Positions 4,528-38,138 of a DNA stretch of 42,926 nucleotides are shown here, one piece after another. The notes under the pieces were generated by a model. It searched no databases, was not told where the DNA came from, and saw nothing but the letters and a program-made list of their open reading frames with translations. The translations under genes were made by a program, and so were the position numbers. Source of the DNA: Elusimicrobiota bacterium (GTDB lineage: Bacteria > Elusimicrobiota > Elusimicrobia > UBA1565); NCBI GenBank assembly GCA_043819795.1, contig JBDREN010000032.1, positions 1 through 42,926 of the forward strand, read 5' to 3'. Position 1 is the first letter of the stretch, and each line of letters begins with the position of its first letter.

Positions 4528-4536
4528 AGGCAAGAC

Positions 4537-16042: not shown

Positions 16043-16130
16043 GGAGGGGTGCGTGAGCGGTTGAAACGGCCGGTCTTGAAAACCGGTAGCCAGCGATCCT
16101 GGCTCGAGGGTTCGAATCCCTCCCCCTCCG
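16043..16130 (+). tRNA. tRNA-Ser (anticodon TGA), CCA not encoded
   Basis: Acceptor stem GGAGGGG/CCCCTCC plus discriminator G; anticodon arm CCGGT-CTTGAAA-ACCGG; long variable arm; T-loop GGTTCGAATCC. Confidence 0.95.
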
Positions 16131-16215
16131 CTCCTTCGCGGCACTTCTCAAACTTTCTTGAGAGGTGTCGCTCTTTTTTGGGAACCAATTCGAGGGGCCA
16201 TTCGTATATATGGGT

Positions 16216-20417: not shown

Positions 20418-21248
20418 ATGGCCCTCCACCTGCCCATCAACGCCGACTGCAACCTTCGCTGCGTGTTCTGCTCCGCCGCGGGAAGAAACGGCGACTTCCA
20501 GCTGAGCTCGCTGATCGCGATGATCGACGAGGACCAGACCGGGCACGTGCAGATATCAGGCGGGGACCCCATGCTCAAGGACCCGCTCGAGCTGCTGGAG
20601 ATCCTGCTGCGCTGCCGCAAGAAGAAGAAGCTCATCGAGCTCCAGACCAACGCCCTGCTGGTCCCCGCCTACGACGCCAAGCGGTTCCGGCTGATCGCGG
20701 GGCTGGTGGACTACTTCAACGTCAATCTCTCCGCCCACACGCCGGAGCTCGACGAGGCCGTGACGGGCGCGGCGGGCGGCTTCGAGAAGCGCCTCGACGG
20801 GGTTCGCCGCATGCTCTCGCACGGCGCGCCGGTCCGGCTCACCTACGTCGTCTGCCAGGCCAACTACCGGCACTGCGTGGACTTCGCCGACTTCGTGGCG
20901 TGCGAGCTCAAGGGCGTGGAGTGGATCCAGTTCAGCTTCGTGAAGGGCGTGGGCCGGGCCAGGGGGAGCGCCCGGATCATCCCGCGCTTCCGCGAGGCGG
21001 CGCCGCACCTCAACGAGGCGCTCGCCTTCTGCCGCGACAGCGGGATCCGGTTCGAGGTGGACCACATCCCGGTCTGCTTCGTCCGGGAGTTTGAAGACAA
21101 CCACGTCGACTACCGCAAGATGCTCGCGGAGCAGCCGGGGGCGCATCTCGCCGAGAAGCAGCGGGTCGCCGACTGCGACGGCTGCTCCCTGCGTTTGTGG
21201 TGCCCCGGTCCCCGCAAGGACTACATCGAGCTCTACGGGGAGCTCTGA
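20418..21248 (+). CDS. Radical SAM protein (HxsC-like)
   Basis: CNLRCVFC, ISGGDP, QTNA, DHIPVC; C-terminal CDGCSLRLWCPG. Confidence 0.85.
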   Translation: MALHLPINADCNLRCVFCSAAGRNGDFQLSSLIAMIDEDQTGHVQISGGDPMLKDPLELLEILLRCRKKKKLIELQTNALLVPAYDAKRFRLIAGLVDYFNVNLSAHTPELDEAVTGAAGGFEKRLDGVRRMLSHGAPVRLTYVVCQANYRHCVDFADFVACELKGVEWIQFSFVKGVGRARGSARIIPRFREAAPHLNEALAFCRDSGIRFEVDHIPVCFVREFEDNHVDYRKMLAEQPGAHLAEKQRVADCDGCSLRLWCPGPRKDYIELYGEL

Positions 21249-22522
21249 TGCCGTCCTCCCCCTCGACCGAGACGCTCGACGTCGGGGCTTTGCGCGCCCA
21301 TTACCCGGCCCTCGACAACCGCGTGGACGGCAAGCGCCTCGTCTATCTCGACAGCGCCTGCACCGCGCTCAAGCCCCGCTGCGTGGCCGAGCGTCTGGGG
21401 GAGTTCTACCTGAACTGGGGCGGCTGCGGCGGCAAGCGTTCGACCCACCTGCTCTCGCAGCGCGTCGAGGAGTGGTTCCAGGACGCCCGCCGCGAGACGG
21501 CCGACTTCCTGGGCGCCGAGCGCGCCGAGGAGATCGTTTTCACCTCCGGGACGACCGAGGCGGTCAACCTCGTGGCGCGCGCCTTCCCGTTCGAGGGGGA
21601 CCGCCGCGAGGTGGTGTTGACCGACATGGAGCACAACAGCGTGCTCCTGCCCCTGCTCGAGCTCGAGAAGCGGGGCGAGGCCTCGCTCAAGTTCTGCCCG
21701 GTGAAAGGGGGGCAGCTCGACCTAGAGGCCATGGAGCGCCTCATAACGCGCCGGACCGCCCTGGTGGCCGTGGCGCGCTCCTCCAACGTGCTGGGCGGGC
21801 TGTTTCCCGTCGCGCGGGTCGCGCGCATGGCCCGCTCCCGGGGAGCCCGCATCCTCGTGGACGACGCGCAGTACCTTTCCTCGCACCGGGAGGACGTCCG
21901 GGAGACCGACGCCGACTTCGTGGCCTTCTCCTCGCACAAGCTCGGCGGGCCCTTCGGGGTGGGGGTGCTCTACGGCAAGGAGAACCTTCTCAACCGCCTG
22001 GGCGTCTATAAGGTCGGGGGCGGGACGGTGAAGGACGTGTCGTGGAACGGCTCCGGGGCGGAGGCCGTCTATTTGGACGCGCCCATGCGCTTCGAGGCCG
22101 GCGTCCAGGACCTGGCGGGCGTGGCGGCTTTCGGGGACGCTCTGCGTTTTTTCAGGGCGATCCCGGAACGGGCCTTGCGGGCCCACATCGCGGGCCTGGT
22201 GCGCCGGACCGCGGAGGGCGTCGCGCGCTTCGAGGAGGTAGGGCTCCTCGGAGAGATCGAGGACCTGGAGCGGGGCTCGATCGTCTCGTTCGCGCCGAGG
22301 CATCCGGGCTTCTCGATCGCCGATTTCAACCTCTACCTCAACCACGAGCTCGACGGCCGCTTCATCGCCGTGCGGGCGGGCGAGCACTGCGCGCATCTGC
22401 TGCACCACAAGCTGGGCGTCCCCGGCACGGTCCGGGTCTCGTTCTTCGCCTACAACACGTTGGAGGAGGCGGACTTGTTCCTGGACGCGCTGGGGGGCTA
22501 CATCCGGGAGGCGTGCCGGTGA
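21248..22522 (+). CDS. PLP-dependent cysteine desulfurase, SufS-like (class V aminotransferase)
   Basis: YLDSACTALKP, FTSGTTEAVN, MEHNS, DDAQ, SSHK (PLP Lys), RAGEHCA (SufS-type catalytic Cys), RVSFFAYNT; TGATG overlap with the upstream gene. Confidence 0.9.
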   Translation: MPSSPSTETLDVGALRAHYPALDNRVDGKRLVYLDSACTALKPRCVAERLGEFYLNWGGCGGKRSTHLLSQRVEEWFQDARRETADFLGAERAEEIVFTSGTTEAVNLVARAFPFEGDRREVVLTDMEHNSVLLPLLELEKRGEASLKFCPVKGGQLDLEAMERLITRRTALVAVARSSNVLGGLFPVARVARMARSRGARILVDDAQYLSSHREDVRETDADFVAFSSHKLGGPFGVGVLYGKENLLNRLGVYKVGGGTVKDVSWNGSGAEAVYLDAPMRFEAGVQDLAGVAAFGDALRFFRAIPERALRAHIAGLVRRTAEGVARFEEVGLLGEIEDLERGSIVSFAPRHPGFSIADFNLYLNHELDGRFIAVRAGEHCAHLLHHKLGVPGTVRVSFFAYNTLEEADLFLDALGGYIREACR

Positions 22523-23817
22523 AGCGGGACGGCGCCCTCGACCGGGAGGGGGGGGCGGGCGCGCCCGCCGAAGACGCGGCCGCCGAGCGCAGCGGCCGCG
22601 AGGCCTTCGACGAGCCGAAGTGCTTCGACATCCTGCTCCACTACGCCTGCCAGGCCAAGTGCCTGTTCTGCTCGCAGGACTTCGGCTGGCGCGAGGAGCC
22701 CAACCTCATGCCATTCCGGGCGGCGGCGGAGAAGATCTTCTGGGCCCACCAGCACGGCTTCCGGCGTCTGGGCTTCACGGGCGGCGAGCCCACGCTGCGC
22801 AAGGACCTGGCCAAGCTCCTCGTCCTCGCGCGCAAGGTGGGCTTCACGTACACCCGCATCCAGACCAACGGGGTCCGGCTCGCGGACCCGGACTACGCCG
22901 GCGCGCTCGCGGACGCGGGTCTCACCTTCGTCAAGCTCTCGGTCCACGGCCACGACGCCGAGACCCACGACGGCCTGGCGGGGATGCCAGGCTCCTTCGA
23001 CGCCTGCCTGAAGGCTATCGAGAACCTCAAGAGGCTCAAGATCGGGGTCGGCGTCAACATCGTCCTCAATAAGCGCAATTATCAACGCCTGGTCGAGTTC
23101 TACGAGCTGTTCTTGCTCAAGCTGCGCCTGTCGAACTTCGTCATCATCGCGCCGCTCTACGAGGGGAACATGACGCGGAACGTCGCCGGGATGGGCGCGC
23201 GGCTGACGGACATGGCGTCCCACATCAGGCGCGCCTACGAGGTGTTCGAGAGGATCGACTTCCCGAAGCCGCCGCTCCTGCTGCATTTCACCCCGTGCGT
23301 CCTTCCCGGCTACGAGCAGCAGATGCTCGGCTGGTCGTCCTTCAACACCATGGTCGTCAATCCCGACGGGGAGCAGAAGGACCTCGACGAGACGATGACG
23401 CAGCACACGGTCAAGACCAAGGCCTGCCGGGCGTGCGTGTACAACGACCGCTGCATCGGGCTCGACAGGAGCTACGCCGAGCGCTTCGGCACCGGCGAGC
23501 TCTCGCCGCTCAAGGCGGTCCCGGAGCGCTACGGCCGGGCGCGGCGGGGCGAGGGGCCGCACGAGGGGCGGCCGGTGCTGACCGACAACGAGACCTGCGC
23601 GATCGAAGTGCTCAAGCACAAGAGCGGCGTGAGCACTTCGGAGTTCCTGAGGATCGCCGAGCGCTTCCCAATCTGCAAGGACTGCGGCGACGAGAACGCG
23701 GTGATCAACGCGGCGGAGACTTTGATCAAGATGGGGCTGGTGAAACGGCGGTTCCAAAAGGGGAAGTACGTATGGTCGCTGCAAGAGGCGGCGCTGCGGG
23801 CGAGCGTCTTCAGCTAA
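22519..23817 (+). CDS. Radical SAM protein (HxsC-like) with extra C-terminal domain
   Basis: CQAKCLFC, FTGGEPT, IQTNG, FTPC, CRACVYNDRCIG; C-terminal extension with ICKDC and a helix-wing-like end; GTGA overlap. Confidence 0.88.
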   Translation: MKRDGALDREGGAGAPAEDAAAERSGREAFDEPKCFDILLHYACQAKCLFCSQDFGWREEPNLMPFRAAAEKIFWAHQHGFRRLGFTGGEPTLRKDLAKLLVLARKVGFTYTRIQTNGVRLADPDYAGALADAGLTFVKLSVHGHDAETHDGLAGMPGSFDACLKAIENLKRLKIGVGVNIVLNKRNYQRLVEFYELFLLKLRLSNFVIIAPLYEGNMTRNVAGMGARLTDMASHIRRAYEVFERIDFPKPPLLLHFTPCVLPGYEQQMLGWSSFNTMVVNPDGEQKDLDETMTQHTVKTKACRACVYNDRCIGLDRSYAERFGTGELSPLKAVPERYGRARRGEGPHEGRPVLTDNETCAIEVLKHKSGVSTSEFLRIAERFPICKDCGDENAVINAAETLIKMGLVKRRFQKGKYVWSLQEAALRASVFS

Positions 23818-24005
23818 GCCTCCGGGGCGGCACGAGCCTCTGGCTCGCCGGCGGGGGAGGCATCTTCGGCCTGCCCGCCGAGGTCGTCGAGAAGGGCCGG
23901 CCGGAGCTCTCGGGAGCGGGCATCGCGGAGGGCCTGGACGAGACGCGCCGCGCGCTCGACAAGCTGGCGGACTACGAGATCGATATGGAGGCGCTGTGCG
24001 CGTGA
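23772..24005 (+). CDS. Small hypothetical protein (77 aa)
   Basis: Fills the 23817-24002 gap; protein-like composition (…GLDETRRALDKLADYEIDMEALCA); TGA overlaps the next GTG; start uncertain. Confidence 0.45.
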   Translation: MVAARGGAAGERLQLSLRGGTSLWLAGGGGIFGLPAEVVEKGRPELSGAGIAEGLDETRRALDKLADYEIDMEALCA

Positions 24006-25021
24006 ATGCGGGCCCCGGGTCGAAGCGCCGGGAGAGGGAGGCCCCCCGAGGGAGGATACAGAAGCTGGTCATCTTCACCGGCTTCTCGTGCAACAACCGA
24101 TGCCGCTTCTGCATCGACATGCACAAGCGCGACATCCCCGACAAGACGACCCAGCGGATCGTGCGCGAGATGGCCGACGCCAAGTCCCAGGGCGTCGAGT
24201 ACCTCGAGATGATCGGCGGGGAGACGACTATCCGCGGCGACTTCCTGCCCCTGGTCCGCACGGCCCGGAAGCTCGGCTTCGAGCGCGTCGTCGTGGCGAC
24301 CAACGGGCGGATGTTCTCGTATCCCGAGTTCGCGAAGCGGACCCTGGATGCCGGCGTGACCGACCTGATCTTCTCGATTCACGGCCACGACGCACGGCTG
24401 CACGAGGCCATGACTTCCGTGCCGGGGAGCTTCGCGGAGCTTCTCAAGGGAGTCGAGAACCTGCGGGCTCTCGGCTTCAAGCGTATCAACGCGAACTGCA
24501 CGGTGGTCAAGCCCAACATGGGGAGCCTGCCCGACATCGGGAGGCTGCTTCTGAGGCTCGGGATCCGCAACGCCGAGCTCATCTTCGTGGACCCCAACAT
24601 CGGGGGGGCCAACTCGGACTTCGGCGGGCTCGTCCCGCGAATCTCTGAGGCCGCGCCCTTCATGCGCGAGACGCTCGACGTCGGCCGCGCGGGCGGCACT
24701 CGCCACTGGACCGCGCGGTACGTGCCGTTGTGCCGCTTCGCGGGTTACCTGGATCAGATTTCGGAGATCCGCGAGGTTTCCGTATTCCATACGCGCCATT
24801 GGGCGCCGGATTTCAAGAACGAGGACGTGTCCGCCTCGCGGGCCTCCGCCGGAAGGATGAAGACGGAGCGCTGCGCCGGGTGCGCGCTCCACGGGGCCTG
24901 CGAGGGGCTCTGGAAGGAGTACCTCGATCGCTACGGCGACGCGGAGCTCGTCCCGGTCGAGGGGCCGGTTGAGATCCCGGACTGGCGGAAGCTGCCAGGG
25001 GCTGGAAACAACGACCGATGA
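24002..25021 (+). CDS. Radical SAM protein (HxsC-like)
   Basis: CNNRCRFC, IGGETT, ATNGRMFSY, YVPLC, CAGCALHGACEG; GGAGG RBS. Confidence 0.88.
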   Translation: MNAGPGSKRREREAPRGRIQKLVIFTGFSCNNRCRFCIDMHKRDIPDKTTQRIVREMADAKSQGVEYLEMIGGETTIRGDFLPLVRTARKLGFERVVVATNGRMFSYPEFAKRTLDAGVTDLIFSIHGHDARLHEAMTSVPGSFAELLKGVENLRALGFKRINANCTVVKPNMGSLPDIGRLLLRLGIRNAELIFVDPNIGGANSDFGGLVPRISEAAPFMRETLDVGRAGGTRHWTARYVPLCRFAGYLDQISEIREVSVFHTRHWAPDFKNEDVSASRASAGRMKTERCAGCALHGACEGLWKEYLDRYGDAELVPVEGPVEIPDWRKLPGAGNNDR

Positions 25022-25046
25022 AACGACGATCCGCCCCCGCAACGAT

Positions 25047-25078
25047 GCGCAATCCCTCCCCGCGGGGGAGGGATGCGC
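25047..25078. repeat. Strong GC-rich inverted repeat in an intergenic gap
   Basis: GCGCAATCCCTCCCC-GC-GGGGGAGGGATGCGC near-perfect hairpin. Confidence 0.7.
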
Positions 25079-25099
25079 GCATGGAGGGACGCGGGTAAC

Positions 25100-26065
25100 A
25101 TGCCCGACTTCTCCATCTGGCCTCAGTGCAACATCGGCTGCGTGTTCTGCTCGAACCCCGCCAAGGGGTTCCGGCGGACCACGGACAAGTACTCCTACGC
25201 GGAGATCGCCCGTAAGGTCGAGAAGTACAAGCGGGGGCTCAAGACCTTCGTGAAGTTCGACAGCGTGCGCGACTACTTCAACCTGACCGGCGGCGAGCCG
25301 ACGCTGCACCCGGAGTTCCTGAGGATCGTCGCGCACATCCGCCGCGAGTTCCCGAAGGGCCTCATCCGCGTGCTCTCCAACGGCCGCATGTTCGCCTACG
25401 AGGACTTCGCCCGGCGGACCCTGGGCATCGGCATGTCGCCTTTCGAGGTGGCGGTCCCGGTATTCGGCTACGACGCGAGGACCCACGAGAGCGTCTCTCG
25501 CGCGCCGAAAAGCTTCGAGCAGACGGCCCGGGGGCTCGAGAACCTACGCCGCCACCGCGCGGAGGGCCAGCGGATCGAGCTCCGGATCATCCTGACGAAG
25601 ATCCAGATGCGCTCGCTCGACGGCCTGCTCGACTATGTCCTCGCCGAGCTTTCCTGGGTCGACAGGGTGGTGCTGCTGTTCGTGGAGCTGGAGGGTTTCG
25701 CCGAGCTCTATCGCGGGCAGGTCGCCTTGACGATGAGCGAGTGCGCCGCCCGCCTCGACCGCAATTACGCCAAGCTCCGCCGGCTTCCCCAGGCGCGGCT
25801 CTACCATTTCCCGCTTTGCGTATTGCCGCCGCGGCTGTGGCCCTTCGTCTACAACACGCTGGACTCCTTCAAGGTCACGCACCTGGAGCGCTGCCGCAAG
25901 AGCTGCATGTACCGCGAGGCGTGCGTGGGCGTTCACCGCAGCTACGAGAAGCACATGGGGGCGCCCGACATCCGGCCGCTCACCGAGCCCCAGCCGGTCG
26001 AGCTTTCCGGCAACCGCTACCATCCGGTCTGCGGGGTGAGGATGGAGACCCCGAGCTATGGTTAA
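25100..26065 (+). CDS. Radical SAM protein (HxsC-like)
   Basis: MPDFSIWPQCNIGCVFC, LTGGEPTLHP, LSNGRMF, HESVSRAPKSF, LYHFPLCVLP, CRKSCMYREACVG. Confidence 0.88.
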   Translation: MPDFSIWPQCNIGCVFCSNPAKGFRRTTDKYSYAEIARKVEKYKRGLKTFVKFDSVRDYFNLTGGEPTLHPEFLRIVAHIRREFPKGLIRVLSNGRMFAYEDFARRTLGIGMSPFEVAVPVFGYDARTHESVSRAPKSFEQTARGLENLRRHRAEGQRIELRIILTKIQMRSLDGLLDYVLAELSWVDRVVLLFVELEGFAELYRGQVALTMSECAARLDRNYAKLRRLPQARLYHFPLCVLPPRLWPFVYNTLDSFKVTHLERCRKSCMYREACVGVHRSYEKHMGAPDIRPLTEPQPVELSGNRYHPVCGVRMETPSYG

Positions 26066-26486
26066 GGTGTCCTTGGGCCCCGCGGCCGACCGCGTGGCGG
26101 CCTACGGCGCGGCCCACGCCATGACGCATCGCGCCTACGCGGCGCTCGCGCGCGAGGGCAAGGATACCGTCGTGTGCCTTTGGCCCAAGCCGGGCCGGGG
26201 GGGGCGGCCCGCCATGGACGCGCGCGCCCTCGAGCGCGCCTGCCGGCTCGAGTACGAGAACCAGCTCCACCGGTGGGAGATCGCGCGCAACAACGAGTCG
26301 GTGCGCGCGCAGATCGCGCGCCGCATGCTGGACCTCGCCGGGGGCGTGCGGGGCGAGGGCGGGGTGCGGGTCGTGGAGCGGCTCGCTCCCGAGCAGGAGG
26401 CCGCGATCGAGCGCCTGCTCGAGGAGGCCGGGAAGGGGCCCAAGGACCCGCTCGGCATCGCCACGCCCTGGGGGGGCGCGAAGTGA
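26058..26486 (+). CDS. HxsD-like protein
   Basis: AAHAMTHRAY corresponds to the AAYxLTDRAY motif of 28274 and 31463; C-terminal DPLGIATPW motif. Confidence 0.7.
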   Translation: MVKVSLGPAADRVAAYGAAHAMTHRAYAALAREGKDTVVCLWPKPGRGGRPAMDARALERACRLEYENQLHRWEIARNNESVRAQIARRMLDLAGGVRGEGGVRVVERLAPEQEAAIERLLEEAGKGPKDPLGIATPWGGAK

Positions 26487-26932
26487 GGCCGATGATCGAC
26501 GCCGCCGGCGGAGAGGCGGTCGTCCGTCTTCCGAAGGCGTTCTACGAGAAGGCGAGCCTCAAGGCCGCGGCCGACGCCTTCGTGGGGCGGGCGAAGATCG
26601 GGCTGCTGCAGGGCGAACGGGGCGAGCATCGCGTCCTGCTGCGGCCGTCCCGGAGGAAGCTCTTTGATCGCGCCTTCCGCCGGGATCGAGAAGGCCTGCT
26701 CGCCCTGGCCGGCGAGTTCATCAACGAGGCGCTCAGCCACCAGCTCCGCCAGGAAGTGATCCGCTTCAACAACGGCCTGACCGCGCCGGTGCTGGGCCGG
26801 CTTTACGAGAAGGGCTTTCTCTGCGTACCGTGGGACCCGCTCGAGGAGATGGACCGGGGCCTGGCCGGGCGGCGCGGTGCCGAGACCGAGGCGCTCATCG
26901 AAGAGGCCATCCGCATGGGGCGCCGCCGATGA
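26483..26932 (+). CDS. HxsD-like protein
   Basis: LPKAFYEKASLKAAADAF...LAGEFINEALSHQLRQ, matching the EF.NE.L...LR helix of HxsD; GTGA overlap. Confidence 0.7.
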   Translation: MRPMIDAAGGEAVVRLPKAFYEKASLKAAADAFVGRAKIGLLQGERGEHRVLLRPSRRKLFDRAFRRDREGLLALAGEFINEALSHQLRQEVIRFNNGLTAPVLGRLYEKGFLCVPWDPLEEMDRGLAGRRGAETEALIEEAIRMGRRR

Positions 26933-28272
26933 GCTCCAAGCTGACCTGCCTCAAGGAGCTGCCGAAGCTCGACCGCCGCAGCGTCGGCCCGCACCGCTAC
27001 CGTGCGCTCGGCGACAAGGTCCTTGTGACCGGCGATGCCGGGCACTACGCGTTCCTCTCTCCCGGGGAGTACCGCGCGTACCTGCGCGGGATGGACGAGG
27101 GGCATCCGCGCTTCGAGGAGCTGCGCCTCAAGGGCTTTATACGCCACTACATGGAGTTCGACCTCATCGCTTCGGAGGCGCTCGAATCGAGCCTGCTGAG
27201 CTGGGAGGGAGCGAAGAACCACGTGGTCTTCCTGGAGCGGGGCGGGGTCCGCATGGACCCCGATACGGCTCGCGAGGCCGTGGACTTTATCTTCACCGTG
27301 CCCGGCCCGGTGGTGCAGATCGAGATGGTCGCCGGGGACGTCGACGCCTGCTGGCCCGCGGTCTGGCTGCTGGTCCGTTACGCGCGGCGCCGGGCCGAAT
27401 GGAACTCCCGGCTCCTGCGGCTCTGGCTGCGGACCGGGCCCGAGGGTCCGGAGCCGAAGAAGCTCAAGTTCCTCCTCGATCATTCGGTCGGCCTCCGCGT
27501 GGCGTTCGACGGCGCCGCCGGGCCGGGGCGCAAGCCGGCGTGGCGGCGCAAGGTCTCGGAGGCCAGAAGACGCGCGGAGGACATGCCCATGCCTCGCGCG
27601 CTCCTGCGCGTGGCGGCGCGGACGACGCGCCCCCGCGCCTGGGTGGAGCACTGGAAGAGCCTGGGCTGCGGCTCGGTGCGCCTGGCGCCCTCGCCGGAGC
27701 TTCTCGACGAGGGGCGCCTGGAGCCTTTCCTGGATTTCTACGCGCGCGCGCTCGACCGCATGATCGCCGAGCCCGAGCCGGCCCTCCGCGAGGAGTGGGC
27801 CGCGGCGTTCCTGCGCCGCGTGCCTCCCGAGGCTCACCTGCCGCGCGAGGAGCGCGGCGGCCCGCTTCCGGGGCACGACGTGGTCGGCGAGCTGGCGTAC
27901 AGCCCGGAGGGGGGCATCTTCACCAATTCCAACGGGCTCGATCTCGCGCGCAAGGATATGCCGGTCTTCAAGCTCGGCATCGTCGAGAAGACGGCCTACG
28001 AGGAGTTCCCGGACAAGGACCTCGTCCGGCTCAGCCTGGCTGCGCTGGAGGGTGCGCATCAACCGCTCTGCTTCCATTGCGCCTACAAGCCGTACTGCGC
28101 CGTGGCGCCGTCGCAGAACATGCTCGCGCAGGGCTCGTTCTGGGGGCAGATCCCATCGAGCCCGCACTGCGCGGCGCAGATGGGCGTGCTCGACATCCTG
28201 TTCGAGCGGCTCAAGCGCCCCCGGAGCCGGGAGGTCCTTCTGGAATGGACGCATCAATGGAGTTACCTCTGA
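26929..28272 (+). CDS. HxsB paralog lacking the radical SAM CxxxCxxC motif
   Basis: Aligns by eye to HxsB (VTGDAGH, LKGFIR, AVDFIF, LAYSPEGGIFT, CFHCAYKPYC, HC..MGVLDILFERL), but the CxxxCxxC loop is missing and GGE is replaced by AGD. Confidence 0.82.
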   Translation: MSSKLTCLKELPKLDRRSVGPHRYRALGDKVLVTGDAGHYAFLSPGEYRAYLRGMDEGHPRFEELRLKGFIRHYMEFDLIASEALESSLLSWEGAKNHVVFLERGGVRMDPDTAREAVDFIFTVPGPVVQIEMVAGDVDACWPAVWLLVRYARRRAEWNSRLLRLWLRTGPEGPEPKKLKFLLDHSVGLRVAFDGAAGPGRKPAWRRKVSEARRRAEDMPMPRALLRVAARTTRPRAWVEHWKSLGCGSVRLAPSPELLDEGRLEPFLDFYARALDRMIAEPEPALREEWAAAFLRRVPPEAHLPREERGGPLPGHDVVGELAYSPEGGIFTNSNGLDLARKDMPVFKLGIVEKTAYEEFPDKDLVRLSLAALEGAHQPLCFHCAYKPYCAVAPSQNMLAQGSFWGQIPSSPHCAAQMGVLDILFERLKRPRSREVLLEWTHQWSYL

Positions 28273-28273
28273 G

Positions 28274-28939
28274 ATGAAGAGAAAGACGAAATCAGCCAAG
28301 AAGCCCAAGGCCGCGGGAAAAACGCCGAAAGCCGCACCGCGCTCCAAACGCACTTCCCAAAAGGGCGCGGCACGGCCCGGCTCCGCGGTCGAGGCCGCCC
28401 CGCCGTTCATGAAGGACGTGCCGGGCTCCGGCGTCTCGCTGGACCTGGACGCGAGCCTTCACGGCCTCGAGCCGATCCTGGGCGCCGCCTACGCCCTGAC
28501 CGACCGGGCCTATGCGCGGCTCGACGGAGACAAGGGGGGCCGGCTGCGGGTCAGCCTGCGCTCGAAGCGGAGGCTTTCGGCGGAGGGCCTCGACGAACTC
28601 GGCGAGCTTTTCTGGTGCGAGCTCAAGACCCAGAAGATCCGCTGGGCCATCGCCAAGAACAACCTGCCGGTGCGCCAAGCCTTGGTGGAGAAGGCCGTGC
28701 TCCTGGCGCAGGGACGGCTTCCCGAGGAGCCGGTCCCGGCGCCCGCGGCGGCCGCGGCAAGCGAGCCGCCGCCCGAGCAGAAGCTCACCGAGGAGCAGCT
28801 CGCCGAGGTCTCCCGCCTGATCGCCGAGGTGGAGGATGAGATCAAGGACCTCAAGTCCGGGAAGGGGCTCGAGGACCCGGAGCGCATCGCCGCGACCTGG
28901 GAGGAGAAGCACGGCCAGCCCGGGGGAGGGTCCAAATGA
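28274..28939 (+). CDS. HxsD-like protein with Lys-rich N-terminus
   Basis: GAAYALTDRAY, VSLRSK, C-terminal EDPERIAATWEEK. Confidence 0.78.
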   Translation: MKRKTKSAKKPKAAGKTPKAAPRSKRTSQKGAARPGSAVEAAPPFMKDVPGSGVSLDLDASLHGLEPILGAAYALTDRAYARLDGDKGGRLRVSLRSKRRLSAEGLDELGELFWCELKTQKIRWAIAKNNLPVRQALVEKAVLLAQGRLPEEPVPAPAAAAASEPPPEQKLTEEQLAEVSRLIAEVEDEIKDLKSGKGLEDPERIAATWEEKHGQPGGGSK

Positions 28940-29373
28940 CCAAGCTCACGGTGTCGAAGAGGGTCTATTCGGAGGAGGCGCTCAAGCTCGCCGCGAACGT
29001 CTTCTCGCGGCGCGCCCAGGCGGAGTTCGCGGAGGCCGAGAATGGCTGGGAGGTGACGCTCCTGCCGCGGTCCCGGCGCGCATCCAAAGGGGGCCGGGTA
29101 CGGCGCCCCCCCGGGGTCGACGCCGGTCCGCGGGCGCGCGGCTTGGCGGAACTCAAGGCCCTCGAAGGGGAATTCCTCAACGAGCTCTTGAGCCAGGAGT
29201 ACCGCGTCCTCGTGAGCGGCTTCAATAAGCGCATCGCCGGGGTCCTCGTGACCCAGGCGCTCTTCTCCGCGCGGGGGGGCGAGAACCCTCCGAAGCCGCC
29301 GAAGGAGTCCGCGGCTTTCAAGAAGGAGGCCGCCAAGCTGCTGCGGGAAGCGAAGGAGGAGACCCATGGCTGA
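28936..29373 (+). CDS. HxsD-like protein
   Basis: VSKRVYSEEALKLAANVF...LEGEFLNELLSQEYR; ATGA overlap. Confidence 0.72.
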   Translation: MTKLTVSKRVYSEEALKLAANVFSRRAQAEFAEAENGWEVTLLPRSRRASKGGRVRRPPGVDAGPRARGLAELKALEGEFLNELLSQEYRVLVSGFNKRIAGVLVTQALFSARGGENPPKPPKESAAFKKEAAKLLREAKEETHG

Positions 29374-30652
29374 GACGCGCCTGACGAATCCGCCGCTCGA
29401 AGGGTCTGCGCACCAGGAGCGGGTGGCCGGTCACAACTTCCGCCGCGTCGCCGACAAGATCCTGATCACCAACGACGCCGGGCACGGGGTCCTGCTCGGG
29501 GACGCGGATTTCCTGCGCTATCTCAAGGGCGGCGTCTCGAACGAGGAGCCGCTCGGCACGGAGCTGCGCCGCAAGGGTTTCTTCCGTAATTATCTCGACT
29601 TCCGCGCCCTGGCGGGCTGTATGGTGGAGCGTTGGCTGCTGGACTGGAAGGGGCCCGCGATCCATACGATCGCCGTGTCGGGCCGCGCGCCCGGCTCGGC
29701 CAAGCGCATGAGCCCCGCGACCGCCAAGAAGGCGGTGGACTTCGTCTTCTCTGGCGCCGCTCCCGCGCTGCTCATCGAGCTTCGGGGCGGCGGACGGCGC
29801 GCCTGGCCGGTGGTTCGGTTCATCGTCCGCTACGCGAAGAAGAAGAGCGAGGTCCAAAAGCGGTCGCTCTGCCTGCGGCTTTTGGCGGAGCCCGCCGCGC
29901 TCGACGGCGAGAGGGCGCGCTGGCTCGACGAGCAGGGGGTGACCGTATGCGCGCTGCTCGCCGGCGACGGCGTGCCGGCGCCGCCCAAGGGCGCGCGCGA
30001 GGCCGTCTTCACCGTTACGCGGGCCGCCCTGTCCGAGCCCGAGAAGACCGTGGAGCGCCTCATCGCGGCGGGGATCGAGTCGGTGGAGTTTCGCCGCTCA
30101 GAGGAAGGCGACGTCCCGGTGGGCCGGTATCTGGAGTTCTACCGCAAGGCGCTTGCCGCCGTCGTGGAGGCCTGCCGCGGCGGCAAGAAGCTGCGCGAGA
30201 CGGCGGCCGCCGCCCTGCTGGCGAGGATCACGGGCGGCGGCCGCGGCAGCCGCCCGGATGGCGAGGGGCTCTGCTCGCTCGCCTACGGTCCCGACGGGGA
30301 TATCTATACGAGCGACGAGGGGCTGCTCCTGGGCGAGGCTGGAGACCCGCTGTTCCGGATCGGCCGGCTCGGCGAGACGGGATACGACGAGGCCCTCGGC
30401 CACCCCATGGTCCGGGCGGCGCTCCTGGCCGCGAGCCCGTCCACGCAGCCCTTCTGCTTCCAGTGCGCCTACCAGCCCTACTGCCGGGTCCGCCCGGTTT
30501 ACAACTACCGGACCCAGGGAGGCCTCTGGGGCCACATGCCGTCGAACGCCTGGTGCGAGACGATGATGGGGATCTTCGACATCCTCGTCGAGGGGCTGCA
30601 GGGCCGGGAGGGGCCGGAGACGCTGAAGTCCTGGGCCCGGGAGGTCGCTTGA
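29366..30652 (+). CDS. Second HxsB paralog lacking CxxxCxxC
   Basis: ITNDAGH, LRRKGFFR, MSPATAKKAVDFVF, LAYGPDGDIYTSDEG, CFQCAYQPYC, WGHMPSNAWC..MGIFDIL; no CxxxCxxC. Confidence 0.82.
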   Translation: MAETRLTNPPLEGSAHQERVAGHNFRRVADKILITNDAGHGVLLGDADFLRYLKGGVSNEEPLGTELRRKGFFRNYLDFRALAGCMVERWLLDWKGPAIHTIAVSGRAPGSAKRMSPATAKKAVDFVFSGAAPALLIELRGGGRRAWPVVRFIVRYAKKKSEVQKRSLCLRLLAEPAALDGERARWLDEQGVTVCALLAGDGVPAPPKGAREAVFTVTRAALSEPEKTVERLIAAGIESVEFRRSEEGDVPVGRYLEFYRKALAAVVEACRGGKKLRETAAAALLARITGGGRGSRPDGEGLCSLAYGPDGDIYTSDEGLLLGEAGDPLFRIGRLGETGYDEALGHPMVRAALLAASPSTQPFCFQCAYQPYCRVRPVYNYRTQGGLWGHMPSNAWCETMMGIFDILVEGLQGREGPETLKSWAREVA

Positions 30653-30764: not shown

Positions 30765-31466
30765 ATGAGCAAAAGACAAGGCATTTCAAGGCGGGCACGC
30801 CGGTCGGAGCCGGAGGACGGATCCGTACAAGATGGCGGACTCATGCAGCCGGACGAATCCGGCCAGCCCGGCCAGTCCGACCGGACCGGCGAGCCCGCGC
30901 GGCCGGCGGGTCCCACGCAGACGGAGATGCCCGCCGGGGACGAGAAGGTCGTCTCCTCGGTGACCGTGGCCGTCGAGGTGTCCGCTCCCGCGAAGAGCTG
31001 CTTCGCGGTGGCCGCGAACCATTTCAACCTGCCCAAGTGGGCGCATCCTATTAAGGAAGTGCGGCTCGACGAGGGCCGGCGCGAAGTCGACTACCTGCTC
31101 CCGGACGGCATCGTCACCTGCCAGACGCAGAGCCGCACCGACATGAAGCGCGGGGTCGTGGACTGGACGGTGCGCCTGCCCAAGGGCGAGCCGATCCAGG
31201 TATTCTCGCGGGTGGTGCCTCTCGATCCGAGCCGTTCCGTCTACATCTTTACGCTGCTCTCGCCGCCCATGCCGCGCCGGCGGCTCAAGGACGCCTACGG
31301 CGTGGTGGAGAAGAACCTGGTCAAGGACCTCGAGAAGTTCCGGGAGCTGGTGAGGAAGGAGAGCCAGAAGGGCCCCGACGCGCTCGAAGCCGAGCTGCAG
31401 GAGGCTCAGCAGGCGGCCGGCGGGGGCGCGCCGACGCGCTCCAAGGGGGCGAGGAGGAAGAGTTGA
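30765..31466 (+). CDS. SRPBCC/START-like domain protein with low-complexity N-terminus
   Basis: VTVAVEVSAPAKSCFAVAANHFNLPKWAHPIKEV and C-terminal helix LVKDLEKFRELV are typical of the SRPBCC fold. Confidence 0.65.
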   Translation: MSKRQGISRRARRSEPEDGSVQDGGLMQPDESGQPGQSDRTGEPARPAGPTQTEMPAGDEKVVSSVTVAVEVSAPAKSCFAVAANHFNLPKWAHPIKEVRLDEGRREVDYLLPDGIVTCQTQSRTDMKRGVVDWTVRLPKGEPIQVFSRVVPLDPSRSVYIFTLLSPPMPRRRLKDAYGVVEKNLVKDLEKFRELVRKESQKGPDALEAELQEAQQAAGGGAPTRSKGARRKS

Positions 31467-31978
31467 GGTTCAAAGTCTCGCTTCGCTCGGGAGAGGTAGT
31501 CTTCCCGATCCAGAAGAAGCTTTATCCCCTGGAGATCATCCAGGGGGCGGCCTATGTGCTGACCGACCGGGCCTACGCCTACGTCGAGGAGAAGCGGGGC
31601 CTCGGCATCTACGAGCTCACGCTGAGGTCCAGGAAGAAGGCGACGAAGGAGGGGCTCGAGGCGCTCGCCGGGGACTTCCTCAACGAGGTGCTCAACCAGG
31701 CGCTGCGCCAGAGGCTGCTGGCCGACAACCGCTCCGTCATGGAGCACATCATCTCGCGCGCCATGGTCTCGGCGCGCCGGAACGACGAGGACCCGGTCCA
31801 GCGCCGGGAGGCCCCGGACGAGGCGCTCAGCGCCGGGCAACAGGCCGAGATGGAGAAGCTCATCGCCGAGGCGGACGCCGAGATCGCGGCCCGCGCCAAG
31901 GGCAACGGGGAGGGCGATCCCCGCGGCATCAAAAGGACCTGGGAGGAGCGCTTTGGCAAGCCGCGCGCCGGCCGCTGA
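31463..31978 (+). CDS. hxsD: His-Xaa-Ser system protein HxsD
   Basis: LYPLEIIQGAAYVLTDRAY, LAGDFLNEVLNQALRQ, DPRGIKRTWEE; immediately upstream of hxsB; TTGA overlap. Confidence 0.82.
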   Translation: MRFKVSLRSGEVVFPIQKKLYPLEIIQGAAYVLTDRAYAYVEEKRGLGIYELTLRSRKKATKEGLEALAGDFLNEVLNQALRQRLLADNRSVMEHIISRAMVSARRNDEDPVQRREAPDEALSAGQQAEMEKLIAEADAEIAARAKGNGEGDPRGIKRTWEERFGKPRAGR

Positions 31979-33491
31979 GGGGAGCCGACTCACGCAGTAT
32001 CTCCACGTAGGTCGCGTGGACGTCCGTCGCGGGAAGGTCGCGGCCGCCGCCTACCGCCGGGTCGGGAAGCGCTGGCTCATCACCAACGACGCGGGCCACT
32101 TCGCCCAGCTCGACGCGGGGGAGTTCGCGGCGTACCTCGGCGGCAGGCTCGAGAGCGGCGGCGCCCTCTGGAACGACCTGCAGCGCAAGGGCTTCATACG
32201 CGACCACCTGGACTTCGACGCGCTCGTCGACACCTACCGGGAGAAGAACTCGTTCTTGTTCCAGGCCGCGCGGCTCCACATCATCGTCACCACGCTGCGC
32301 TGCAACCACAACTGCGTCTACTGCCACTCGAGCTCCGTGGCCCCCGACCGGTTCGATAAGGACATGTCGGTCGAGACCGCGAGGAAGACGGTCGACTTCA
32401 TCTTCCAGTGCCCGAACCCCACGCTGATCCTCGAGTTCCAGGGGGGCGAGTCGCTGCTCAACTGGCCGGTGCTCAAGTTCATCACGCGCTACGCGAAGCT
32501 CAAGAACGAGGCCGCCAGGCGCAACCTTTTCGTGACGCTGGTCTCCAACTTCAGCATGATGGACGAGGAGAAGTTCCGCTTCCTGGTCTCGGAGATGGTG
32601 GGCGTCTGCACCTCGCTCGACGGCCCGGCGGACGTCCACAACGCCAACCGCGTCTTCACTGGCGGGGACAGCCACGACCGGGTCGTGCGGTGGCTGCGCC
32701 GCTTCCAGGAGGCGGCCGACGGCGGGCTCGACGGCAAGCGGCACTTCAAGCCGGGGGCCCTGATGTCGACGACGCGCCTCAGCCTCGGACACGCCGAGCG
32801 CATCGTCGACGAGTACGTCCGGCTCGGCCTGCCCGGGATCTTCGTGCGGCAGCTCAATCCGATCGGCTACGCCCGCCGCAAGTGGGAGAAGGTCGGATAC
32901 ACGGCGGACGAGTTCCTGGCGTTCTATCGGGAAATGCTGGACCACATCCTCGAGGTCAACCGGGGCGGGACCGTGTTCTACGAGAGGGCGGCGCTCACGA
33001 TGCTGACGAAGATCCTGCTGCTCCAGGATCCCGGCTACGTGGACATGCGCTCGCCCAGCGGCAGCGGCTTCGGCGTGCTGACCTACAACCACGACGGGGG
33101 CGTCTACACGGGCGACGAGGCGCGGATGGTGGCCCGTGAGGGCGACTCCCTCTTCCGGGTGGGCCACGTGGCCGAGAGCCGCTACAACGACATCTTCGAT
33201 CACCCCGTTCTCAAGGCCGCGGCGGTGGCTACCCTGCTCGAGAACCAGCCGTTGTGCTCGCAGTGCGTCTATAAGCCCTACTGCGGGATCGACCCGGTCT
33301 ACAACCGCGAGATCCAGCGGAACATCTGGGGCCATATGCCGGACAACGACCGGTGCCGGCTGTACATGGGGATGTTCGACGTAATCTTCGAAAAGCTGCA
33401 GGACTCCTCTAACAGAAGGGTCTTCGAGTCCTGGCTGAAGGCTGTCGGCCCCGCCGCCCCGGCGGAGCCGGAGGCGACGGAGGTCAGATGA
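31953..33491 (+). CDS. hxsB: His-Xaa-Ser system radical SAM/SPASM maturase HxsB
   Basis: LHIIVTTLRCNHNCVYCH, LEFQGGESLLN, TSLDGPADVHNANR, YVDMRSPSG, YNHDGGVYTGDEARM, CSQCVYKPYCGIDPV; GGAGGAG RBS before TTG. Confidence 0.92.
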   Translation: MASRAPAAEGSRLTQYLHVGRVDVRRGKVAAAAYRRVGKRWLITNDAGHFAQLDAGEFAAYLGGRLESGGALWNDLQRKGFIRDHLDFDALVDTYREKNSFLFQAARLHIIVTTLRCNHNCVYCHSSSVAPDRFDKDMSVETARKTVDFIFQCPNPTLILEFQGGESLLNWPVLKFITRYAKLKNEAARRNLFVTLVSNFSMMDEEKFRFLVSEMVGVCTSLDGPADVHNANRVFTGGDSHDRVVRWLRRFQEAADGGLDGKRHFKPGALMSTTRLSLGHAERIVDEYVRLGLPGIFVRQLNPIGYARRKWEKVGYTADEFLAFYREMLDHILEVNRGGTVFYERAALTMLTKILLLQDPGYVDMRSPSGSGFGVLTYNHDGGVYTGDEARMVAREGDSLFRVGHVAESRYNDIFDHPVLKAAAVATLLENQPLCSQCVYKPYCGIDPVYNREIQRNIWGHMPDNDRCRLYMGMFDVIFEKLQDSSNRRVFESWLKAVGPAAPAEPEATEVR

Positions 33492-34524: not shown

Positions 34525-34833
34525 ATGGCTGCCAAGAAAGGGAAGAAGAAGACGAAGCGTGTCAGCAAGAAGAAGCTGATCGGCGGGGTGAAGAAGGGGG
34601 CCGAGATGTTCTTGACGTCGGAGGAAGGCAAAGTGGTCAAGCAGGACGTGGTCAAGACCGCCACGGCGCTCGGGATCATCGGGACGGCCCTCCTGAAGAG
34701 CGCCCACGATCTGCCGGCCGCGCCGCACTCCAACTACCTGCACAGCTCGGGAGGCGTGGGCGGCCATACCAGCCACGCCAGCCACGGCTCGCACGGGAGC
34801 CACGGCTCGCACGGGAGCCATTTCTCGTTCTAA
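34525..34833 (+). CDS. hxsA: His-Xaa-Ser repeat precursor peptide (HxsA family)
   Basis: GAGGAG RBS; Lys-rich N-terminus, FLTSEEGK motif, hydrophobic stretch, core HSNYLHSSGGVGG-HTS-HAS-HGS-HGS-HGS-HGS-HFS-F. Confidence 0.92.
   Translation: MAAKKGKKKTKRVSKKKLIGGVKKGAEMFLTSEEGKVVKQDVVKTATALGIIGTALLKSAHDLPAAPHSNYLHSSGGVGGHTSHASHGSHGSHGSHGSHFSF
34780..34820 (+). repeat. 18-bp tandem repeat encoding (SHGSHG)n within the precursor
   Basis: AGCCACGGCTCGCACGGG occurs twice exactly, followed by AGCCA. Confidence 0.9.
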
Positions 34834-34886: not shown

Positions 34887-35966
34887 GTGCTGCATCCAAA
34901 CGACGCGATCAGAGTCTATGAGCTGCTCGTGGGCTACGCCTGCAACGCGAAGTGCCTGTTCTGCTCGCAGGAGTTCGCGTGGCGCGGCCTGCCCGCGCTC
35001 ACCTTCGAGCAGATGGCCTCGAAGGTCTACCAGGCCTACCGCGAGGGGACCCGGGTCCTCGTGATCGACGGGGGGGAGCCCACGGTCCATCCCGACCTCC
35101 CCAAGCTCGTCGCCTTTAGCCGGCGCGCCGGCTTCCGTGAGATCCACATCCAGACCAACGGGATACGCTTCGGCGACCGGGCCTACGCCGACGCCCTGAC
35201 GGAGGTCGGGCTCAACCTGGCCCGGATCTCGATACACGCCCACACCCCCGAGCTCCACGACGCGCTGCTGATGGCGCCGGGGGCGTTCAGGAAGGCTCTC
35301 GCCGGGATCGAGAACCTGCGCCGCCGCGGGGCCCATGTGGCGGCCAACATCCTCGTCAACCGGATGAACTATAGGACCCTGCCCGACTACTTCCGGTTTT
35401 TCTACGATGAGATCGGGCTGCGCGACTTCGGCATCATCTTCCCGCTCTACGAGGGGGACATGGCAGTCAACGCCGGCCGGATCGGCGTGAGGATGAGCGA
35501 GGCCGCGCCCTACGTGCGGGAGTCGTTCGAGCTGTTCCGGGAGCGCGGGGCGGAGCCGCCGTTCCTGCTGAACTTCATCCCCTGCGGGGTCCCGGGCTAC
35601 GAGAGCCGGATGCTGCGCTGGTCGGGCGACAGCGCGGGGATCTACGACTTCGAGAAGAAGCTGCTCTTCGACCCGGAGCGCTACACCCTCGAGCATCCGA
35701 CGGGCCTGAAGGCGGGGCTGGACGCGGTCGCGCGCAAGAACAAGGTGATGATCGGCGCGTGCCGCGGCTGCGCATACTCCGAGCGGTGCCTCGGCTGCGA
35801 GAAGGACTACGCGGAGCGGTTTGGAGGCTCGGAGTTCACGGCCTTCAAACGTGAGCCCGAGCCCTTCGACGGCGGCTGGGGCGCGGAGGCCGGCAGGTGG
35901 CGCCGCATCCTCACCCCCGAGGAGCACCGCTCGCTGCGGGAAAAGCGGGCGGCGGAGAGGGCATGA
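34887..35966 (+). CDS. Radical SAM protein (HxsC-like), paralog of 22519
   Basis: YACNAKCLFCSQEFAWR, DGGEPT, IQTNG, PLYEGDM, NFIPC, CRGCAYSERCLG. Confidence 0.88.
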   Translation: MLHPNDAIRVYELLVGYACNAKCLFCSQEFAWRGLPALTFEQMASKVYQAYREGTRVLVIDGGEPTVHPDLPKLVAFSRRAGFREIHIQTNGIRFGDRAYADALTEVGLNLARISIHAHTPELHDALLMAPGAFRKALAGIENLRRRGAHVAANILVNRMNYRTLPDYFRFFYDEIGLRDFGIIFPLYEGDMAVNAGRIGVRMSEAAPYVRESFELFRERGAEPPFLLNFIPCGVPGYESRMLRWSGDSAGIYDFEKKLLFDPERYTLEHPTGLKAGLDAVARKNKVMIGACRGCAYSERCLGCEKDYAERFGGSEFTAFKREPEPFDGGWGAEAGRWRRILTPEEHRSLREKRAAERA

Positions 35967-37111
35967 TCGCCTTCGAGGTGGGGCTCGGCTACGGCTGCGG
36001 GGTGAAATGCCGCTTCTGCGCGCAGAAGCGCGAATGGCGGCGCATCCCCCCCCTGCCCTTCGATCTCATCGCGCGGCAGATGTACATGGCCCACGCGGAC
36101 GGCTACCGGAGCGTCTGCTTCACCGGGGGCGAGCCCACGCTCTACAACGACCTTCCGAAGATGGCGGCGCTGGCCCGGCGCATCGGGTTCACCTACATCC
36201 GGGTGCAGTCCAACGGCATGCGGCTGGCCGATCCCGCCTACGCGGGGCGGCTCATCGACGCCGGAGTGAACTTCTTCCGGGTCTCGGGCCACGGACACAC
36301 GGCGGAGCTGCACGACTGGCTCGTGCAGACGCCCGGCGCCCTGGAAAGGCTCTTCGCGGCGGCGGAGAACATCCGCTCGCGCGGCGTCGAGGTCGGCGTC
36401 AATTTCCTGATCAACGCCAGGAACCACGCGACGCTCCCCGAGTTCTGCGACGAGTTCCTCGGCCGGGGCTTCACCGATTTCGTGATCGTCTACCCGCTTT
36501 ACGAGGGCGACCTGGCGGAGAACGCCGGGGAGCTGGGCGTGCTCATGGCGGAGGCGGCGCGCGGCTTGCGGCGGGCGCTCGAAGTGTTCGACCGCCGCCG
36601 AGCGGACTATCCGAGAGTGCTCAACTTCACGCCGTGCGCGGCGCCGGACCTGATCCCGATCATGGTGGCGTGGTCGCCGCATTCCTCCATCATGGCGGGC
36701 GGCGACGGGGTCCCCGCGGACTTCTACGTGGCCGCCAACGAGTCCCGCGTCAAGACCGCCGCGTGCCGGGGATGCGCGTTCGGCGCGGAGTGCCGGGGCT
36801 TCAACGCCGGCTACCTGAAGCGCTTCCCGGACGAGGGGCTGGGGGCGGTGGCTTCGGAGCACGAGGGCGCGGCCAAGGTCGCGCGTCGGCTGGGCGGTCG
36901 CCGCATCCTGCGCGCCGGCGACGCCTTCTTCGACGAGGAGCGGCGGGAGGTCGCCCGGCTGGTGCAGCCCCTGGTGGACCAGGAGGTGTGCAAGACGGAG
37001 GTCCAGGTCGAGCGGATGGCGCTGGCGTTCGACGCGGAGGAGAGCGGGCTCGTGCAGCAGCGCTCCGTATGGCGCGAACCTCTGTCTTCGAAGGAGGCGG
37101 CACGTGCCTGA
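35963..37111 (+). CDS. Radical SAM protein (HxsC-like), paralog of 22519 and 34887
   Basis: YGCGVKCRFCAQKREWR, FTGGEPT, VQSNG, PLYEGDL, NFTPC, CRGCAFGAECRG; ATGA overlap. Confidence 0.88.
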   Translation: MIAFEVGLGYGCGVKCRFCAQKREWRRIPPLPFDLIARQMYMAHADGYRSVCFTGGEPTLYNDLPKMAALARRIGFTYIRVQSNGMRLADPAYAGRLIDAGVNFFRVSGHGHTAELHDWLVQTPGALERLFAAAENIRSRGVEVGVNFLINARNHATLPEFCDEFLGRGFTDFVIVYPLYEGDLAENAGELGVLMAEAARGLRRALEVFDRRRADYPRVLNFTPCAAPDLIPIMVAWSPHSSIMAGGDGVPADFYVAANESRVKTAACRGCAFGAECRGFNAGYLKRFPDEGLGAVASEHEGAAKVARRLGGRRILRAGDAFFDEERREVARLVQPLVDQEVCKTEVQVERMALAFDAEESGLVQQRSVWREPLSSKEAARA

Positions 37112-38126: not shown

Positions 38127-38138
38127 AGGAGGAGCATC

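Follow-up and report, generated by a model that had tools for sequence, protein, structure and literature searches.

Two HxsB paralogues lacking the radical SAM motif in an expanded His-Xaa-Ser cluster of an Elusimicrobiota bacterium, and their possible role in HxsD docking

Introduction

Why should a gene cluster that already encodes an intact HxsB carry two further HxsB-like genes in which the catalytic motif has been lost? The question is raised by a 42,926-nucleotide stretch of DNA from an Elusimicrobiota bacterium (assembly GCA_043819795.1, contig JBDREN010000032.1), which was analysed over its whole length and is called the window here. It holds a much expanded His-Xaa-Ser cluster with seven HxsC-like, five HxsD-like and three HxsB-like genes, besides an HxsA4-like precursor, SufS and a halogenase-like gene (Table 1). 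Two of the HxsB-like genes, B1 and B2, lack the motif of radical S-adenosylmethionine (SAM) enzymes, and their nearest named homologues are Elusimicrobia proteins that are called hypothetical. In E. coli, HXS has been reported as a four-gene anti-phage system in which the first cluster of HxsB is essential (PMC13128918). With somewhat better than even confidence, we read B1 and B2 as non-catalytic, HxsD-docking subunits of a multi-subunit His-Xaa-Ser maturase.

Loss of the catalytic motif and retention of one cysteine site

B1 (447 aa) and B2 (428 aa) are both uninterrupted open reading frames (ORFs), and their GC content at third codon positions (GC3) is 0.91, matching that of their neighbours. 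The best NCBIfam match of both is HxsB (TIGR03978), with 110 bits for B1 and 183 bits for B2, below the cut-off of 370 bits; the intact HxsB of the window (31953-33491) scores 480 bits. Over nearly the full length the identity to this intact copy is 27% for B1 and 32% for B2, in comparison to 33% between B1 and B2, which bears out the HxsB likeness along the length that the first-pass annotation had proposed. The motifs quoted there are also present, except that B1 reads GDAGH and not NDAGH. Neither protein gave a Pfam match at E<=0.01, while the intact HxsB matches Radical_SAM.

The loss of the CNHNCVYC loop and of GGE, likewise proposed earlier, is confirmed by the alignment, in which the loop is deleted by 18 residues in B1 and by 14 in B2 and GGE is replaced by AGD and GGG, respectively. 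The CTSLDGP..H...R segment has gone from both as well. In the B1-type rows C117, C121 and C124 are kept in 0 of 50, C219, T220, S221 and P225 of the strand-4 CTSLDGP in at most 6%, and H229, R233, D388 and R391 are mostly gone, whereas the strand-4 positions and the last four are conserved to 80% or more among 50 intact HxsB. Judged from these residues, B1 and B2 are most likely unable to cleave SAM. An alternative cysteine motif in B1 was considered and rejected, as C7, C141 and C247 are not among the conserved columns. An assembly artefact was also rejected: the same deletion recurs in 19 genomes, and for B2 the contigs from two other runs span the shortened loop with no gap listed.

B1 starts before the stop of the HxsD-like gene upstream of it is complete, and 1 nt lies between B1 and the next gene, while B2 overlaps its upstream gene by 8 nt and is followed by a gap of 112 nt. 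The claim that both are open frames coupled to their neighbours thus stands for the frames and for the upstream overlaps, but not for the downstream side of B2.

The only cysteines conserved in B1 and B2 are four that form the distal (AuxII-type) set, kept in 50 of 50 B1 rows and in both B2 rows; their spacing is like that of the distal auxiliary cluster of anSME. Neither B1 and B2 nor the intact HxsB of the window has any of the proximal three SPASM cysteines, and 49 of the 50 B1 rows have none of them, so that the claimed retention of SPASM-type cysteines applies to the distal four and not to the proximal three. No PF13186 or TIGR04085 match was found in B1 or B2 in Pfam and NCBIfam. The proximal three are present in 35 of 50 intact database HxsB and all missing in 14 of the 50, and a one-auxiliary-cluster form of HxsB is therefore common. 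The intact HxsB of the window, which reads GGES, is itself without all three.

The predicted fold of B1 (predicted local distance difference test, pLDDT, 88.5) comprises an N-terminal domain of three strands then three helices, a partial barrel and a SPASM-like domain. Its top fold match is CteB (E 1.7e-13), with ChlB, TigE and anSME also found, and it reaches a template modelling (TM) score of 0.86 to an HxsB cluster model in the ESM Atlas, where its nearest neighbour is an 88-member cluster that has no Pfam family and is commonest in Acidobacteriota. With loop segments defined on the B1 model, conservation of the catalytic-face loops was 0.58 in intact HxsB (n=50) in comparison to 0.35 in B1 (n=50) and 0.34 in a second dead group (n=29), and that of the opposite-face loops was 0.46 in comparison to 0.58 and 0.53, respectively; the three sets differ in diversity, so that these values are informative only for the direction of the difference inside each set.

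B1 as a conserved clade

Sixty relatives were searched, of which 39 had an HxsB-like match, and 60 regions around listed matches were compared, with 30 weaker matches left out. Within these regions a B1-type gene occurs in 19 genomes of two families, usually in the order D0-Da-B1-Db. The catalytic motif is missing in 19 of 19, the frame is unbroken in 18 of 19 and remains open at 33-51% identity across the two families, and 18 of the 19 loci have an intact HxsB within the region compared, the contig of the remaining one stopping after Db. A 300-genome sample of the phylum (five candidates per genome scored, E<=1e-40) yielded B1-type genes only in the window's own order, with four matches elsewhere, all of them intact HxsB.

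The ratio of nonsynonymous to synonymous substitution rates (dN/dS), obtained by simple counting with a GC3 near 0.9 that probably shrinks dS, was 0.22-0.38 for B1 in 9 non-independent pairs, in comparison to 0.07-0.35 for the intact paralogue Bx (7 pairs) and 0.10-0.25 for By. This pattern indicates that B1 is under purifying selection. The proposal of a maintained pseudo-enzyme is thereby sustained for B1, by its conserved clade, its dN/dS and the lack of a conserved cysteine motif that could replace the lost one; the frameshifts in orthologues that would have spoken for decay were seen once, in G055, with 18 of 19 genes unbroken. As a part of the docking reading, and held with the same slightly better than even confidence, B1 is a long-fixed subunit.

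B1 nevertheless diverges faster than the intact paralogues in every region (mean identity per region 0.38-0.50 vs 0.51-0.86), and only 8 columns are invariant in the 50 B1-type sequences, namely W92, W158, G315, Y386 and the four cysteines. The N-terminal domain is missing or shortened in 4 of 19 orthologues (G049, G019, G008 and G035), with the rest of the protein kept, and its conservation of 0.47 is below the 0.58 of the helix 1-2 face. These values bear on the possibility that the dead copies are precursor chaperones, whose N-terminal RRE-like (RiPP recognition element) domain would hold the HxsA leader and hand it to other enzymes. CteB, the top fold match of B1, carries an RRE, the B1 domain has the strands and helices described above, and a further dead HxsB of this genome on contig C120 (see below) has a precursor but no intact HxsB in its locus. 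The four reduced orthologues weaken precursor binding by this domain, as had been proposed earlier, the lower conservation of the domain points the same way, and no precursor-like ORF is evident near the second dead group; we regard the chaperone role as very improbable.

Predicted docking of Da on B1

Dead HxsB genes nearly always follow hxsD, and for this reason B1 and Da were chosen for complex modelling. The B1-Da model scored 0.63, in comparison to 0.00 for the best of three controls; this mark is reached by 116 of 157 solved complexes and by 2 of 215 mismatched pairs, numbers that apply only approximately to our own alignments. The runs agree in at least 65% of the contacts, and the partner pLDDT is at least 64. 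No similar pair was found by sequence among solved structures (best E 0.61 and 0.079).

The predicted interface joins helices 1 and 2 of B1 (residues 110-125 and 142-159) with the tail of Da (108-145), and W158 of B1, which contacts R131 of Da in the model, is invariant, as is R131. The interface columns are above average in conservation (0.59 vs 0.47 and 0.76 vs 0.55), and all five HxsD paralogues of the window have a similar tail helix. The model supports, but does not show, that B1 binds Da. Among the roles offered by the first-pass annotation, that of a subunit of a heteromeric maturase gains support from these results, with HxsD as the predicted partner.

B2 and its counterpart By

The history of B2 differs from that of B1, and a treatment of the two as equivalents was rejected. 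In the sister family Dc is followed by By, and all 13 of the 13 full-length loci have a By with CX3CX2C. At the same position in the window's own family, the gene is motif-less here and in G001, gone from the locus in G010 and G004, and cut off by the contig end in G015. The G001 copy has shrunk to about 290 aa with all four cysteines kept. The identity of B2 is 44% to By and 33% to B1. The trees join B2 with B1, and the approximately unbiased (AU) test rejects B2 plus By (p=0.027), with long branches in play. Gene order and identity thus favour B2 as the counterpart of By, while the trees point to B1.

One contig from a close strain was available for comparison, with 25 of 27 differences of the piece listed and 18 of them within B2. 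In codons 1-161 of B2 the silent changes number 12 and those that replace an amino acid 6 (ratio about 0.17), and therefore B2 still looks constrained in the window's strain. The case for a maintained pseudo-enzyme is weaker for B2 than for B1: the counterpart of B2 bears the motif in the sister family and is reduced or absent in the window's family. Within the docking reading, B2 is the more labile copy, dispensable in some relatives, which we hold only slightly more probable than its opposite.

These results raise the alternative that the copies have no task of their own and are slowly decaying duplicates, kept in frame by translational coupling or by an inherited interface. The fate of the By position fits it best, making decay a possible explanation for B2, and for B1 the frameshifted copy in G055, the reduced N-terminal domains and the faster divergence in every region would agree. 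On the other side stand the dN/dS well under 1 in all 9 B1 pairs, frames that stay open across two families, the excess of silent changes in B2 and a pattern of loss that is specific to one face of the protein. As an account of both copies, decay appears quite unlikely to us.

Repeated motif loss in the HxsB family

Among the best 150 of 955 protein matches, a set biased by the dead query that includes B2 itself and copies of the locus genes, 88 were motif-less, 50 motif-bearing and 12 too partial. In a FastTree tree of 248 rows the motif-less rows fall into five or more separate positions, and at four of these the sister rows are motif-bearing, with support of 95 or higher. The lesions differ, the loop being deleted in B1 and the cysteines being replaced with the loop kept on contig C120. 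The latter belongs to a third dead HxsB of the window's genome (G000 contig C120, 70000-78100, minus strand), which has its cysteines replaced and reads RGGE. Its locus also contains an hxsD and the gene of an HxsA4-like precursor, whereas an intact HxsB is missing there; this type of dead HxsB also occurs in G002 and G011, and a B12-dependent radical SAM gene is nearby in L050.

One large motif-less group, the second dead group referred to above, bears Myxococcota or Deltaproteobacteria names. In 29 of its members, picked by hand, the HxsB fold and the helix 1-2 motifs are kept, while all four cysteines are present in 8 members and none in 12. Of 8 loci, 7 have an hxsD upstream of the dead hxsB and none showed an HxsC-like gene; pcnB comes next in 4 of the 5 loci in which the following gene was scanned. 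In 4 of 5 such genomes the only TIGR03976 matches adjoin the dead copy, and 4 of 5 carry an HxsB above cut-off.

In a Myxococcota-type operon (L088, L090, L092 and L094), the dead hxsB is preceded by hxsD and a short hxsD-like gene and followed by pcnB; the short gene scores above the NF038315 cut-off in L088 and L092. The catalytic Hxs genes lie elsewhere in the genome. L089 and L091 are two operon copies in one genome, and the dead hxsB of L091 is split over frames. At L095:8397-11380 a dead hxsB comes immediately after an intact one, and there is no hxsD in the vicinity.

The second dead group also bears on the possibility that B1 is mainly an electron relay, in which a distal [4Fe-4S] cluster, bound by the four cysteines, would supply electrons to the eight intact HxsB- and HxsC-like enzymes of the gene cluster or carry them from one of these to another. 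The cysteines make up half of the invariant columns of B1, and they persist in the shrunken B2 of G001. The second auxiliary cluster of PapB is reported to mediate electron transfer between proteins (PMC10470005), and mutation of the matching CxxC of E. coli HxsB is reported to have lowered HxsA cleavage (PMC13128918). The four cysteines could equally bind Zn, however, and a relay needs no 440-aa protein. With 12 of 29 second-group members lacking all four cysteines, a relay cannot be the general role, so that the relay proposed by the first-pass annotation is left as an option for B1. A relay would be compatible with docking, but as the main role of B1 we consider it rather unlikely.

Weighing of the docking reading

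In the mechanism that we propose, each dead copy would bind the C-terminal tail helix of the HxsD paralogue encoded directly upstream, with the tail lying along the outward side of helices 1 and 2 of the barrel. E. coli HxsD is reported to bind HxsC (PMC13128918), and the dead HxsB would therefore help to hold or order HxsD-HxsC units acting on the precursor. HxsB chemistry would be left to the intact HxsB, and the four-cysteine site would most likely be structural, with a redox role being optional. One matching case is found in G001, whose B2 has no helix 2; of the 16 Dc proteins compared, that of G001 alone has no tail.

A number of observations weigh against this reading. B1-Da binding is a prediction, and the conservation of the interface is not independent of it, because the alignments were the input of the predictor. 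The predicted groove is kept in B2 and in intact HxsB alike, and docking alone therefore does not explain the need for a dead copy. The Dc tail persists in G010, where the B2/By gene has disappeared from the locus, and Db persists in the window without Bx; in Myxococcota, the alignment of the HxsD tail with the docking helix is poor. A B1-type gene was among the matches listed in only 19 of the 39 relatives with HxsB-like genes. In G055 it is split over three frames by two frameshifts, which may be decay or sequencing error, with the neighbouring SufS, four HxsC-like genes, Bx and By unbroken. In E. coli, an HxsC pull-down is reported without HxsB, in mixes that included HxsB and HxsD (PMC13128918).

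The predicted HxsD site common to dead and intact HxsB would also suit regulators or decoys, which would titrate HxsD from active HxsB or absorb anti-HxsB phage inhibitors. The anti-phage role reported for the E. coli system (PMC13128918) would agree with this, and repeated independent origin suits a simple competitive role. The 102-aa precursor of the window has no peptidoglycan-binding or other Pfam domain, and thus an anti-phage role is not assumed here; PADLOC, with a library older than PMC13128918, gave no match to B1, B2 or the precursor, and the dN/dS values are without sign of fast adaptive change. A decoy role seems to us, if anything, even less probable than that of a chaperone.

The gene cluster and its surroundings

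Table 1. Features of the window that are discussed in the text
Feature	Position	Strand	Remark
B1, motif-less HxsB paralogue	26929..28272	+	N-terminal domain, partial barrel, C-terminal four-Cys site
B1 strand 1 to helix 1 region, CX3CX2C loop (18 residues) deleted	27217..27265	+	
B1 C381/C384/C390/C414 (CX2CX5CX23C)	28069..28170	+	Kept in 50/50 B1-type sequences
B2, second motif-less HxsB paralogue	29366..30652	+	Occupies the place of the motif-bearing sister-family By gene
B2 C364, C367, C373, C397	30455..30556	+	
D0, HxsD-like, tail helix	26058..26486	+	Without family match; resembles Db
Da, HxsD-like, overlaps B1 start	26483..26932	+	C-terminal tail is the predicted B1 partner
Db, HxsD-like	28274..28939	+	HxsB after Db in most relatives, absent here
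Dc, HxsD-like with tail helix, overlaps B2 start	28936..29373	+	
Dd, HxsD	31463..31978	+	TIGR03976, above cut-off
Intact HxsB (CNHNCVYC, GGE)	31953..33491	+	Without the three proximal SPASM Cys
His-Xaa-Ser repeat precursor, HxsA4-like	34525..34833	+	38.7 bits, cut-off 55; no Pfam domain
Four HxsC-like radical SAM genes (20418, 22519, 23996, 25073)	within 20418..26065	+	
SufS-type cysteine desulfurase	21245-22522	+	
Three further HxsC-like radical SAM genes (34887, 35963, 37104)	within 34887..39623	+	
Flavin halogenase-like gene	from 38139, within 34887..39623	+	
Polyketide-cyclase/START-like protein, between B2 and Dd	30765..31466	+	Pfam
Cluster genes without Pfam or NCBIfam match	33488-34510, 39620-40576, 40573-41520, 23817-24005		

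The SufS-type desulfurase is a fixed member of the cluster in both families and probably supplies sulfur to its many Fe-S enzymes. The gene at 33488 is retained between hxsB and hxsA in four relatives. The sister-family precursors (L025-L040) have about 10 to 40 HxS matches, many with a CRGGWC-type end, and are followed by two further SPASM-type radical SAM genes. A scan for regulatory sites gave no promoter-like site, with 0.5 expected, and 9 terminator-like sites, with 8.4 expected, numbers too near expectation to be informative. Upstream of the cluster lie a tRNA-Ser(tga) at 16043-16131, within a lower-GC stretch (0.58-0.63 over 14-18 kb), and small- and large-subunit genes of a NiFe hydrogenase (3589-6081, below the family cut-offs), which are flanked by two ORFs that by eye are signal-transduction-like.

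Relation to known systems and significance

B1 and B2 share with HxsB (TIGR03978) and HXS the full-length homology, the C-terminal CxxC site and the hxsD, hxsC and hxsA neighbours, to which the predicted fold of B1 may be added; they differ in being without CX3CX2C, GGE or the ribose-site motif. By their best family match, their place in the tree beside the motif-bearing By and their gene order, the sequences indicate that both descend from HxsB. More than 99.8% of HXS systems are reported to have four genes (PMC13128918), unlike the cluster of the window with its 3 HxsB, 5 HxsD and 7 HxsC-like genes. That study found HxsC to bind HxsD, and its bait, HxsC, did not bring down HxsB, a result that bears only indirectly on HxsB-HxsD binding. 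B1 and B2 resemble CteB, anSME and PapB in the barrel and SPASM-like C-terminal fold; the latter are active with three clusters, while B1 and B2 keep the ligands for one.

Dead relatives of radical SAM enzymes have been described elsewhere. We take IPR026418 and TIGR04150 to be one pseudo-radical-SAM family. In Bacteroidales such proteins are reported beside active maturases as proposed partners with no assigned function (IPR026418, PMC10352776; TIGR04150, PMC4573289). Like these and the halophile pseudo-SAM/SPASM proteins (TIGR04347), B1 and B2 are radical SAM-like proteins beside an active maturase and a precursor; unlike them, they derive from the HxsB family and adjoin HxsD, and they match neither TIGR04150 nor TIGR04347 in NCBIfam at E<=0.01. 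The loss is traceable in B1 and B2, because close motif-bearing relatives exist (By, 44% identity). The main text of PMC13128918 contains no mention of paralog, Elusimicrobi or Myxococc, HxsB is mentioned in PMC9062424 as an annotation, and a literature search with most subscription papers outside its scope found no paper on a motif-less HxsB.

On a wider and more tentative view, to which we give less than even credence, the docking of HxsD would be an ancient additional function of HxsB that was handed over to dedicated dead subunits at least five times. His-Xaa-Ser maturases would then be complexes in which HxsD tails link active and dead HxsB with several HxsC. In Myxococcota, where the dead HxsB often has no metal ligands and is encoded next to pcnB together with the only hxsD of the genome, it would serve to assemble enzymes whose genes are dispersed over the chromosome.

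The sole experimental study of HXS reports chemistry on HxsC-HxsD and, in what it reports there, no HxsB partner (PMC13128918). Natural dead copies separate the catalytic from the structural roles of HxsB and point to a specific HxsB-HxsD interface, and the cluster offers matched motif-bearing (By) and motif-less (B2) counterparts. Since dead HxsB has no Pfam match and is named hypothetical at its source, attempts to rebuild such clusters could omit a needed subunit.

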